From Candidatus Latescibacterota bacterium (GTDB lineage Bacteria > Latescibacterota > CBDEFO01): 64,000 nucleotides of DNA. The translations under genes were made by a program, and so were the position numbers. Shown here piece by piece: positions 60,234 through 64,000 of this stretch; the stretch's first letter is position 1, and every line of letters begins with the position of its first letter. The stretch covers positions 1,376,001-1,440,000 of the forward strand of contig OZ252149.1 of NCBI GenBank assembly GCA_965248755.1, read 5' to 3'. The notes under the pieces were generated by a model that made no database searches, was not told where the DNA came from, and was given only the letters and a program-made list of their open reading frames with translations.

Positions 60234-62738
60234 TTACTTAATAACTATCGATTCCCCCGTCTTACCCAGAATCTCGTTTCTCCACGAAGACGTATGCTTC
60301 AAGCTGGAATCTTTCGGAAGCTGAATTCTATAGAGTTCATCCATAGTGCCAGACGTCAGCGCGCTTTCTATTACTTTACCCCAGTAGCACTTTCTTTCAG
60401 GATCAACCTCGCACATACCGTCCAATGTGGTTCCGCCGCAGGGTCCATTTATCAGGCTCTTGTAGCAGCCCCAGGAGGGTTCCGGGCAGATGTACTCCAA
60501 CTCCGCGATGCGGCAATCGCCGCACATCTCACAGCCCAAAGTCTCGGTCTTTATAGCTCTCTCCATAAACTTGACGAATCTGCCCGCTCCGTGGCTTTCC
60601 GACTCTCTCAAAGACCAATCCAAGAATTCATAGCCTATCGCCCCCGGCTCGAAGAATGCCTTGTGGATCAGTTCCATGCTCTTCTTTCGCCCCTCATACG
60701 AACTGCGGTCTGCAACTTGATAGGGTCCATCCTCCAGTAGATTATCGTCCCCTTCCCGAAACAAATAGAATCCCCATGGAGGGGCAAACTCCATCTCTCT
60801 TTTCCCGTCGCCAGCTCTGTACTCCTCGTAGTTCTCCCTCCAGTCCCCTGCGCCTAATTCTTTTGAAAGCTCTATAATCTCAGAAAGATCGTCAAAGTCG
60901 GTGATCCCACCTATATATATGCCTTCGTAATCGAGACCCCTTACTAATATGTCCATAAGCAGAGCAGACCTGCGAAAGCTCATCTTCCTGTCGTACTCGG
61001 CTAACTCCTCGAAGCCCATTCCCTTGATCCTGTCGCTCTCCTCCTTGGCTACGAACCCCCTCCTGTGTTTATTTCTGAGATCGTCCGAGACATGCGCCCC
61101 CGGAATACCGCCTCTATTCAGATACGACGCCGCGTCGGGGGTCAGGACATATACGTTTCCGAAGACAGGGACATCCGATATCCCCGCATTTTTCATATAG
61201 AGCTTAAGCTCGTGAAACTTCTTTACATCGTAGCCCACCTGGGTTATGAAGAACTTACATCCGACCCTCCACTTTTTCCACATCTTGATATACTGGCCCC
61301 AGACATCCGCTTCAGTGTACTTGAACGGCGATACACCCGTCCCGGCAAAGAGATTGCTCAGGGGCTTTTCAATTCTGGGCAGGAAGCTCGGGAAATCGAG
61401 ACCACGGCCAAGACACCTTATGGCTAACAGGAGACCCACAGCGTCTACATCGAACACGGCCTTCCCCGCCTTCGTATAGTCCCCTGTCACCGGGAATATG
61501 TTCTCGATTCCATGTTCATATAAAGATACGATTCTCCTTATTAAGCTGTCCCTGTCCTCGCTCTTGCAGGACATGATAACCATCGGCTGATGCCCCATCA
61601 GTCTGCCTATATCCGAGGCTATCGTGTCCGGATTGGGCTGTCTGTGGCCGCTTGGTGAATCTGTCAGGCTCACCGTAATGTTGGAACCTTTGGCCCTCTC
61701 TGCAAAGGTATAGAGATTATCCAACTCCCCCTCAGAGGGGACCATCTCAACTCCATAGGAGATTTTGCCCTCGGTATATAGATCTCTTTTCAAGAGGTTA
61801 TCTATGAGCTTCCTCGGTTGGCTTCTCTTCCTTCTGGGAGACGACTTGCAGAAGTCGACCAGAGCCGCAAGGGCATCCTCTTCTCCAGAATCTATCACAG
61901 ACCTTATTAGACTCAAAAGTCTTCCATCTACCAGGTCCTTCCCTGTTATCTTAGTTGCGTCCACAAGAGCCGCGTCCAGACCGTACTCCATAGCGACTCT
62001 GAGATAAGCCTTTTCTACGCTCAATCTTCTCGGCAATCCCTCGGAACAGCTAGAAAGATCAAGGGCGACGTGGAGACCCGACATACCTTTATCTTCAACA
62101 ACCATTTTGATTCCCTCAAGGCCCATTCTTGTAAATCCCAGGTAGTCGGCCCCTATGGGACCTATGACAGGATCCAGGAATATCTGGTCTGGACTGAAGC
62201 CCGATTCGGTCGCCCTTTGGAACAGATAAGTTGCAGTTTTGTGATACGATTCTGCCACTGCTATTTCTGTGCGTCCCGACGAACTGCCGTCTATCTTTTC
62301 CAGAAGTGTCCCCATTACCGAAAAGCTATAGCGATCCCTGAGGGATAGAAGGTCCAGGCTCGATATCGAAACAGGTCCCAAAAGTGGTGGGTTTAACGAA
62401 TTTTGGCTGCAGTAGATTTCCAACGCATCTGTGAGAAGATTTACATCTGAGCTTTCAATGTAGAGCGGAGCGGGCTTTGTGACCTGTTTTGTCATATCCA
62501 CAATCTTGGACACCCCTTGAAGGGCGCGCTTTGTCCCCTCTTTTCTATCCGACCTAAACGAGTCCACGTTTACAAGCAGATAATCTGCTCCGGCTTCTAT
62601 CTGTTCGTTTATCACATGCAAAACATGCTTTCTGCCTTCATAGACATCCAATTTATCGTCGCTGAATAGCTTTTCGACAGAATTTCGAACTGCTCTGAGG
62701 CCGCAGTGAAGAGAATTACCGATTTTTATAAGAGGCAT
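60234..62738 (-). CDS. Fusion protein: pterin-binding (MetH/AcsE-like) + methylenetetrahydrofolate reductase (MetF) + Cys-rich MetV-like domain
   Basis: IFLDPVIGPI and GLDAALVD; then VTGDY and FFITQVGYD; then CEMCGDC...CP...C.KSLINGPCGG...CEV...CYW. Confidence 0.8.
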   Translation of the reverse strand: MPLIKIGNSLHCGLRAVRNSVEKLFSDDKLDVYEGRKHVLHVINEQIEAGADYLLVNVDSFRSDRKEGTKRALQGVSKIVDMTKQVTKPAPLYIESSDVNLLTDALEIYCSQNSLNPPLLGPVSISSLDLLSLRDRYSFSVMGTLLEKIDGSSSGRTEIAVAESYHKTATYLFQRATESGFSPDQIFLDPVIGPIGADYLGFTRMGLEGIKMVVEDKGMSGLHVALDLSSCSEGLPRRLSVEKAYLRVAMEYGLDAALVDATKITGKDLVDGRLLSLIRSVIDSGEEDALAALVDFCKSSPRRKRSQPRKLIDNLLKRDLYTEGKISYGVEMVPSEGELDNLYTFAERAKGSNITVSLTDSPSGHRQPNPDTIASDIGRLMGHQPMVIMSCKSEDRDSLIRRIVSLYEHGIENIFPVTGDYTKAGKAVFDVDAVGLLLAIRCLGRGLDFPSFLPRIEKPLSNLFAGTGVSPFKYTEADVWGQYIKMWKKWRVGCKFFITQVGYDVKKFHELKLYMKNAGISDVPVFGNVYVLTPDAASYLNRGGIPGAHVSDDLRNKHRRGFVAKEESDRIKGMGFEELAEYDRKMSFRRSALLMDILVRGLDYEGIYIGGITDFDDLSEIIELSKELGAGDWRENYEEYRAGDGKREMEFAPPWGFYLFREGDDNLLEDGPYQVADRSSYEGRKKSMELIHKAFFEPGAIGYEFLDWSLRESESHGAGRFVKFMERAIKTETLGCEMCGDCRIAELEYICPEPSWGCYKSLINGPCGGTTLDGMCEVDPERKCYWGKVIESALTSGTMDELYRIQLPKDSSLKHTSSWRNEILGKTGESIVIK

Positions 62739-62940
62739 CTGGAGTCCCTTTGCTTCTATTTACACGGACCGCTTTTTTGCCTGCTGAGAATTTCTGATCC
62801 GATGTTGGTACAAAAAAATATATGCAACACAACTTTGAAAGTCAATATATAAGTGATACCATTCACGTCATTTTGAACCGAATTACGATCGAATATCCAA
62901 TGTTATAGGCGGAAAAAATATCAAACTATTCAAAAAATAC

Positions 62941-62969
62941 TTGACATATACAGTTAAGTAGCTTATCTT
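62941..62969 (+). promoter_or_regulatory. Sigma70-type promoter of the csp gene
   Basis: TTGACA-17 bp-TATCTT. Confidence 0.7.
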
Positions 62970-63088
62970 ACTGTACGCTTTCAGCGGTTGGAGCAAGGTC
63001 TTGTCTGAATCGATTTTAGTGAGGACAGGATTGGCAAGAGTTCATAAGCTCCATCCTTGAAATTCCAAGTAAAAAGGGGGTGATTTAT

Positions 63089-63292
63089 GTGCCTATCGGT
63101 AGGGTGAAGTGGTTCAATGATAGCAAAGGTTACGGCTTCATTGAACAGGATAATGGAGAAGATGTTTTTGTCCATTTCTCAGCTATTGAGCAGGACGGAT
63201 TCAAGACTCTAAGCGAAGGACAAGAAGTCGAGTTTGAGATCGTACAAGGTCCCAAAGGGCTCCAAGCGTCTAATGTAGTCAAACCCGCATAG
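63089..63292 (+). CDS. Cold-shock protein (CspA family)
   Basis: VKWFN..KGYGFI (RNP1) and VFVHFSAI (RNP2). GTG start after AGGGGGTG. Confidence 0.97.
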
Positions 63293-63309
63293 GATTTGAA
63301 TTAGCCTTA

Positions 63310-63620
63310 TTGAGAGGATAACACTGTTTCATAAAGTGGTATCGACCAAACCTGAAGAGGTTGCTTGATAAGGTCTCCACCATAAAGCTGCTGTCACAGA
63401 TGGTGAGAGAAAGCTTTGTGGAACGTCTACTCTTATAGAGAACTGAGCACGGCTGCACGACCTTGAAAAATTGTGTAGCGATGCTTACAAAAGTAGCAGA
63501 AAAGCCGGTGAGAGATCGGCAGGTCAGAAGTGGTCGTTACTGCAAAATCATCGTGTAACCGACATTTGATGAAATTCAGACTGAAGGAACGCGGCCTTAG
63601 CATCTGGCATTCATAAATTC
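63310..63620 (+). ncRNA. Candidate large structured non-coding RNA downstream of csp
   Basis: At least eight hairpins plus long-range and pseudoknot pairings found by eye, no plus-strand ORF, and an intrinsic terminator directly after. Confidence 0.65.
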
Positions 63621-63621
63621 T

Positions 63622-63657
63622 TCCCCGTTCAGGATAATTCCGGACGGGGATTTTTTT
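63622..63657 (+). terminator. Rho-independent terminator
   Basis: TCCCCGTTCAGGA-TAAT-TCCGGACGGGGA-TTTTTTT. Confidence 0.85.
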
Positions 63658-63868
63658 GTGCTCAGGATGACCGATCTGGATAGGAGTTTTGCCCTTTAGA
63701 GCGGCAAGGTCATCGTGAAGAAGAAAAGGTGCTACAGCTGGTTTCCCAGCGATCGTACCACCTTCCTGATGGTCAGTTGACGGTAGGTTGTCAGGCCTCA
63801 ACCTCTGCCAATCATTTGGGAATAGGTTGAGTAGTCTTTGTGTCAAAGGACTACGGATCAACTTAGAA

Positions 63869-64000
63869 TCACTCAGACGATCCGACACTGACTGACAATT
63901 GCCCGTCAAAGACGTCCGGCCAGAGGATGAGCCGATCCTGCGGGATAGTGCGCGATGCGAGTTTCCTGGCAGTGAGGTTTTCGTGGTATGAGTTTTGGAA
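63869..64000 (-). CDS. Possible C-terminal end of a gene entering from beyond the window
   Basis: Open frame FQNSYHENLTARKLASRTIPQDRLILWPDVFDGQLSVSVGSSE*, convergent on the terminator region. Confidence 0.35.
   Translation of the reverse strand, partial: FQNSYHENLTARKLASRTIPQDRLILWPDVFDGQLSVSVGSSE

Follow-up and report, generated by a model that had tools for sequence, protein, structure and literature searches.

The window, the whole 64,000-nucleotide stretch of DNA that was analysed, comes from a complete 4.54-Mb genome, probably of the phylum Latescibacterota, whose class contains one other species among the genomes compared. Close to its right-hand end lies csp, a gene for a small cold-shock domain protein, which is followed by a long structured non-coding region that we refer to as the tail. 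The parts of this transcription unit, together with its downstream neighbour, are the following.

62941 to 62969, + strand: sigma-70-type promoter, TTGACA-17-TATCTT, with 10 of 12 matches, the best of nine promoter-like sites.
62976 to 63088, + strand: 5′ leader of about 113 nt with a Shine-Dalgarno-like GGGGGUG, read from the sequence and forming hairpins in the whole-transcript fold.
63089 to 63292, + strand: csp, encoding a 67-aa cold-shock domain protein from a GUG start (Pfam CSD, E 4.9e-30).
63293 to 63621, + strand: the tail, a long structured non-coding 3′ region recognized from its fold, ORF content, contigs, divergence and terminator distance.
63622 to 63657, + strand: intrinsic terminator, a 12-bp bulged stem at 63622-63650 (p 0.98) followed by U7 at 63651-63657.
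63716 to 64000, + strand, continuing past the window to about 64852 in genome coordinates: broken copy of a BNR-like gene, outside the element.

Judging from the promoter, the csp transcript would start near 62976. The encoded protein corresponds to the 67-aa database protein P0001, its stop codon occupies 63290-63292, and the gene is single-copy (one tblastn match in the genome), making it the only Csp of this organism. Csp proteins are RNA chaperones and can act as antiterminators. A sub-threshold match to the cspA thermoregulator RF01766 (50.6 bits, E 2e-11, cut-off 78 bits) extends over the leader, the coding sequence and the first 54 nt of the tail only. Within the tail itself, a promoter-like site at 63310-63337 matches at 9 of 12 positions, a level that shuffled sequences also reach (mean 2.3 sites). 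The BNR-like copy beyond the terminator, labelled by inspection and not from a family search, has in-frame stops and a frame change, shares 42-51% amino-acid identity with its intact downstream neighbour, and diverges by 9.6% from the sister species. On the other side of csp, the 834-aa protein encoded at 60234-62738 on the - strand combines an MTHFR domain with a C-terminal DUF5981, its N-terminal 320 aa being without assignment, and its gene is located upstream of a ComEC-type gene, tRNA-Pro and a cobalamin-independent synthase-like gene.

The long gap behind csp is real and unusual. The initial annotation had placed the first clear terminator about 330 nt past the gene, and indeed a strict hairpin-plus-U test finds none earlier, the first site lying 355 nt after the csp stop; a looser test adds a non-canonical site at +120. 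Because its hairpin stem is bulged, the terminator is overlooked by a simple scan. Other csp genes have their terminator at a median of 51.5 nt after the stop (92 of 108 loci with a detectable site), and at no more than 100 nt in 84 of these 92. Within the same phylum, 26 of 28 csp loci end 38-65 nt after the stop, which argues that the tail was gained in this lineage.

No credible plus-strand ORF occupies the interval, as the initial annotation had also noted: frames of at least 20 aa on the + strand are only 25-32 aa long. These small frames were rejected as genes, no Shine-Dalgarno sequence being seen for them, and the frame at 63481 has two silent and two replacing variants. An antisense ORF of 158 aa, whose conservation as a protein would have spoken against a non-coding element, has no Pfam match and is 56 aa long in the sister species. 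A search for a protein remnant in the tail by tblastx against its own genome found none (best other match E 0.25), and an origin as a MITE or repeat was discarded, the tail being single-copy in the genome. One 15-codon frame at 63569-63616 resembles the start of helix-turn-helix genes matched by chance in two relatives; no Shine-Dalgarno sequence was seen for it and its second codon is altered in the sister species.

Contigs from RNA-labelled runs, of which 4 of 18 were analysed (four studies with one run apiece: a sponge, two seawater and a vent study), cover 62992-63607, with starts at 62992-63038. In three of the four runs a single contig bridges the csp stop and the tail (X5, 62992-63607; X6, 63038-63563; X7, 63005-63508), these bridging contigs being 503-636 nt long with long arms on both sides of the stop codon; run X1 covers the span of csp and tail in two pieces. 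The tail is probably co-transcribed with csp, for which the bridging contigs are a hint and not proof. Assembled contigs give no information on strand or expression level, nor do they prove transcription or a single transcript, and DNA may be present. The flanks at 62700-62963 and 63624-64000 have no cover in any of the four runs, and in X1 and X6 contigs end at the same position, 63563; the runs compared being RNA-labelled ones only, these ends and uncovered flanks were not taken as transcript ends. Depth along the contigs is flat across csp and tail and therefore does not separate a UTR from a processed RNA.

The interval is densely paired, as the initial annotation described it, and folds better than shuffled controls. 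The tail with its terminator folds at z -4.6 (0 of 100 shuffles) and without it at z -4.1 and -3.45 in two shuffle sets, near the values of the same genome's RNase P (-3.0) and tmRNA (-3.0). Yet 2 of 65 random 325-nt windows fold at z -3.45 or lower, and the adjoining pseudogene stretch 63660-63990 folds at z -3.4. The predicted fold is multibranched, and its hairpins, together with two arms of a candidate fold-back onto the start of csp, are listed here.

63317 to 63343, + strand: hairpin H1 (p 0.45-0.55 alone, 0.74-0.83 in the whole transcript); its end pair G-C is G-U, A-U or A-C in relatives.
63349 to 63362, + strand: hairpin H2, with a GAAG loop (p 0.55 alone, 0.8 in the whole transcript).
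63380 to 63421, + strand: hairpin H3, a nested 16-bp interrupted stem (p 0.98-1.0); its one stem variant retains pairing.
63430 to 63440, + strand: small hairpin H4 (p 0.41-0.7).
63444 to 63487, + strand: hairpin H5, 15 bp plus an internal loop (p 0.9-0.98); one variant retains a pair and two break one.
63504 to 63520, + strand: hairpin H6 (p 0.95), with a loop variant only.
63552 to 63593, + strand: interrupted hairpin H7 (p 0.74-0.8); one pair is broken in the sister species.
63082 to 63105, + strand: candidate fold-back 5′ arm, the start-codon region including GUG, from the whole-transcript fold.
63594 to 63619, + strand: candidate fold-back 3′ arm, just before the terminator, which alternatively closes the tail on 63297-63301.

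Besides these, a long-range stem 63336-55/63524-43 competes with H1, H2 and H4, and both of its variable sites retain pairing; a possible closing stem 63297-63301/63609-63613 reaches p 0.59 in isolation. Five stems of the initial annotation recur in the ensemble, namely 63317-63343 (p 0.45-0.55), 63349-63362 (0.55), 63430-63440 (0.49), 63444-63487 (0.9-0.98) and 63504-63520 (0.95). The other pairings it proposed were not confirmed. The H-type pseudoknot proposed at 63378-63417 loses its bases to a nested helix, 63380-89/63412-21, that holds them at p 0.98; CACCAU and AUGGUG are complementary, yet there is no loop 1 and the variant 63402 G>C breaks the pairing. The suggested GCUGC/GCGGC pairing is broken by 63390 G>A in three of five variant sets and is outcompeted by the nested helix. 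Neither the GUUAC/GUAAC stem nor the long stem 63564-63618 appears above p 0.15, the ensemble preferring 63552-63593 to the latter, and the multiloop closure CGACCA/UGGUCG falls from p 0.47 in isolation to below 0.2 in the whole transcript.

The tail differs from its sister-species counterpart at 9-10 of 325 sites, about half the divergence at fourfold sites (6.3% over 18,707 sites, a set that may include some shadow ORFs; binomial P 0.007). Its divergence is also below the median of 5.4% for 73 intergenic stretches (P 0.03), 11 of which are as conserved as the tail, and below that of the adjoining pseudogene (Fisher P 1.6e-5). In the sponge, seawater and vent relatives represented by RNA-library contigs the tail is 95-98% identical; among the substitutions listed for run X5, at least 14 fall in 315 nt of tail and 8 in 204 nt of csp coding sequence. 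Judged by these divergences, the tail sequence is under moderate constraint. Pooling the sister species with the four runs yields at least 17 variable tail sites. Eight of the 17 listed lie in core stems, which make up 42% of positions, and stem sites are thus not depleted in variants. Four of the eight keep pairing, all by transitions, 55% of which would do so by chance; one gives a mixed outcome that includes a single compensatory change, and three break a pair. No covariation signal was found among the 17 sites listed, and the structure is without comparative support.

Homologues of the tail were sought widely. By blastn its only genome homologue is that of the sister species (2 of 168 phylum genomes including its own, both of one genus), where the csp locus is present twice (L002 and L004 of G001, 99.9% alike, one copy on a contig of 25 kb and the other where a contig ends), probably as an assembly or strain duplicate. 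The same searches in 61 and 168 phylum genomes returned nothing outside the genus beyond chance matches of 18-35 nt, mostly within coding sequence. Two covariance models, R1 (63343-63536) and R2 (63490-63621), each built from only two to three near-identical sequences, were both run against 151 phylum genomes (149 others) and matched nothing beyond the genus. Nor did R1 find one in 5, 7 and 151 genomes of other groups or on 29 of 74 viral csp loci, or both models behind csp of other phyla (best 80 of 596 GTDB csp loci); phage and plasmid collections likewise gave no homologue. One gapped pattern gave 72 matches in metagenomes, all chance, in a search from which very near records may be left out, and five patterns in viral contigs gave no homologue among the matches listed; exact-pattern scans miss diverged copies, and these are therefore weak negatives. 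Csp identity itself falls from 97-100% directly to 89% or less (22 matches); with this gap in the sampling of middle-distance relatives, the absence of homologues is not decisive. Two relatives have tandem csp genes (L031 and L033) with spacers of about 200-350 nt and a common short hairpin before the second gene; these spacers are unrelated to the tail.

Known RNA families do not account for the tail either. Against Rfam 15 (4227 models) there is no family match, the best scores in 63293-63620 being 10-17 bits (E 1.2-8.1), and a further scan gave terminator-type chance matches only there, and no riboswitch. The initial annotation's judgement that the tail is none of tRNA, tmRNA, RNase P and SRP RNA holds, since all of these are found elsewhere in the genome; to the 6S RNA model (RF00013) the tail has no match, and its fold is multibranched. 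The further suggestion of an ornate, pseudoknotted, ribozyme-like RNA or an orphan large-RNA class is not supported: there is no Rfam match, no homologue outside the genus and no covariation, and both proposed pseudoknots fail. The Bacteroidales-2 motif, which had been offered as one such class, is probably included in Rfam, of which no family matches the tail; its name is absent from the main text of PMC5737381. The raiA motif (RF03072) was found nowhere in the genome at E<=1. Nor is a place among the large ornate RNAs of the OLE, ROOL, GOLLD or raiA type supported, given an occurrence in 2 of 168 phylum genomes, both of one genus, with relatives at middle distance unsampled, the lack of covariation among the 17 variable sites listed, and the failure of both proposed pseudoknots. 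A hammerhead reading of CUGAAGA at 63352 was likewise rejected, with no fitting stem II by inspection and no Rfam match. The tail does resemble the raiA motif, ROOL, GOLLD and OLE in exceeding 200 nt with a multi-stem fold, and raiA RNAs in following closely behind a same-strand upstream gene, as far as these are described in PMC5737381 and PMC12286853. Unlike raiA and ROOL as presented there, which occur in at least two phyla and are defined by covariation, it is limited to one genus and shows neither covariation nor a supported pseudoknot nor a match to any model. The literature consulted describes no csp-linked long 3′ RNA for this lineage, and the supplement of PMC5737381, with its 224 motifs, could list one.

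Our preferred explanation, held tentatively and at somewhat less than an even chance, is that the tail is a long structured 3′ UTR, specific to this lineage, through which the stability or translation of the csp mRNA is set. Gene and tail lie between one good promoter and one terminator, consistent with a single 680-nt csp mRNA running from promoter 62941-62969 to terminator 63622-63657, whose genus-peculiar tail would act in cis. The hairpin array may alter ribonuclease attack on the message and so set its half-life. When the final 60 nt have been transcribed, 63594-63619 could fold onto the region around the start codon, 63082-63105, and thereby reduce initiation; Csp, as an RNA chaperone, could open this helix in a feedback. 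Bacterial 3′ UTRs are reported in PMC7049690 to undergo rapid, species-specific turnover, and the narrow distribution of the tail fits such turnover. Against the proposal, the regulation known for csp mRNAs acts through their 5′ end (PMC13271884), and control by a long tail is not known.

The fold-back part of this proposal is doubtful and rests on modelled folds. In the whole-transcript fold the candidate helix has 18 bp (8+4+6) at p 0.9-0.95, and variants at 63094 and 63095 in X5, X6 and X7 would, in a position-wise reading, add two pairs to it; these variants may be incidental because they also give the common Csp residue Val. The predicted extent of the helix is equalled by 5 of 69 shuffled tails, a 20-nt duplex test finds it weaker than 97% of shuffles, and in both copies of the sister species its p falls to about 0.3. 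It would make opening the start region costlier by only 0.4-2.7 kcal/mol, and the computed accessibility of that region (0.26-0.32) barely changes between 4 and 37 C in equilibrium folding, itself a poor test of thermoregulation.

Known systems offer partial parallels. In the icaR mRNA of S. aureus, as described in PMC3868564, the UCCCCUG motif of a long 3′ UTR was shown experimentally to pair with the Shine-Dalgarno sequence, and the csp message would similarly have a long 3′ UTR with a 3′ segment able to pair with its own translation-start region. Unlike that of icaR, the csp-tail pairing is predicted, AU-rich and statistically insecure and covers the start codon and first codons; the two are likened by description, not by sequence. 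The B. subtilis hbs mRNA, as described in PMC5737220, carries a 14-bp pairing between its 5′ and 3′ UTRs that controls nuclease access and masks an RNase Y site. It too is the mRNA of a small nucleic-acid-binding protein with 5′/3′ pairing, here predicted, but the hbs pairing sits in the leader and the csp tail is a multi-hairpin domain. With RF01766 and with the cspG and cspI thermometers, as these are outlined in PMC13271884, the locus shares a csp mRNA and a structured leader of about 110 nt; unlike a member of RF01766 it scores below the cut-off, with identities that by inspection are mostly coding, and the model ends in a terminator just past the stop where here 330 nt intervene.

The same observations bear on three other explanations. 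The tail could be a separate ncRNA of some 320 nt that is transcribed together with csp, excised by a ribonuclease and active in trans with Csp as chaperone or partner, in effect the initial annotation's idea shorn of its pseudoknots. Its size and folding are like those of its own genome's RNase P and tmRNA, the stem at 63297-63301/63609-63613 could close it upon itself, the substitutions listed for run X5 leave it about as conserved as the csp coding sequence, and variable sites preserve the long-range stem 63336-55/63524-43. We regard this as possible, if unlikely, since no homologue outside the genus and no Rfam match were found, covariation is lacking, and stems are broken at about 95% identity. 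In its bolder form, which we consider unlikely, the tail would be the first of an undescribed class of large ncRNA, confined to a thinly sampled marine bacterial class; it would be freed from the csp message and then be folded or bound by Csp, its homologues missing for want of genomes.

Alternatively, the tail might be a weakly constrained insertion, what is left of a gene or mobile element that came to lie between csp and the terminator; it would simply be read through, and its folding would be incidental. The short ends of other csp genes in the phylum, and hence a gain in this lineage, fit this account, as do variants that ignore stems and the random windows and pseudogene that fold equally well. 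We nevertheless think it rather improbable, given a divergence about half the fourfold rate, retention at 95-98% in relatives from sponge, seawater and vent, and the lack of both a second genome copy and, by tblastx against the own genome, a protein remnant. Far less credible is a leader or attenuator of the downstream gene, with the terminator read through under some signal or by Csp antitermination. A same-strand gene copy does begin about 60 nt past the terminator, and Csp proteins have the required ability; but that gene is broken and drifting, no Rfam riboswitch matches, and complements to the terminator 5′ arm are only 6 bp long, and a possible anti-terminator pairing is altered at 63590 in the sister species.

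The tail is thus real, probably transcribed, moderately conserved, genus-restricted, and structured over 330 nt; on present evidence the element is confined to one genus and its structure is not proven. The csp messages are textbook examples of 5′-end control, and their usual end is some 50 nt past the stop codon. Were the tail a 3′ UTR, as we tentatively prefer, a sevenfold longer conserved tail would add a 3′-end layer to cold-shock control, possibly with chaperone feedback of Csp on its own message. Were it a processed RNA, it would represent a class of large RNA not described before, for which Csp is an immediate candidate as partner.

Several observations concern 6S RNA in this phylum. 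No 6S match was obtained anywhere in the genome, nor with a profile of six 6S-like phylum sequences. We rejected the tail as a 6S stand-in, on the missing 6S match and on its multibranched fold as against a rod of about 180 nt with a central bubble. Between zapA and an rny-like gene (L502, 1780-2320), the usual place of 6S RNA, lies a 540-nt GC-rich intergenic stretch with many hairpins and no Rfam match, of which a 161-nt part alone folds no better than shuffles; the stretch may hold a 6S RNA that has diverged, or some other RNA not yet described. Six sub-threshold, rod-like 6S-like RNAs occur in two further families of the phylum (L503-L508, 23-43 bits), five of which adjoin a gene that by inspection is dnaG-like.
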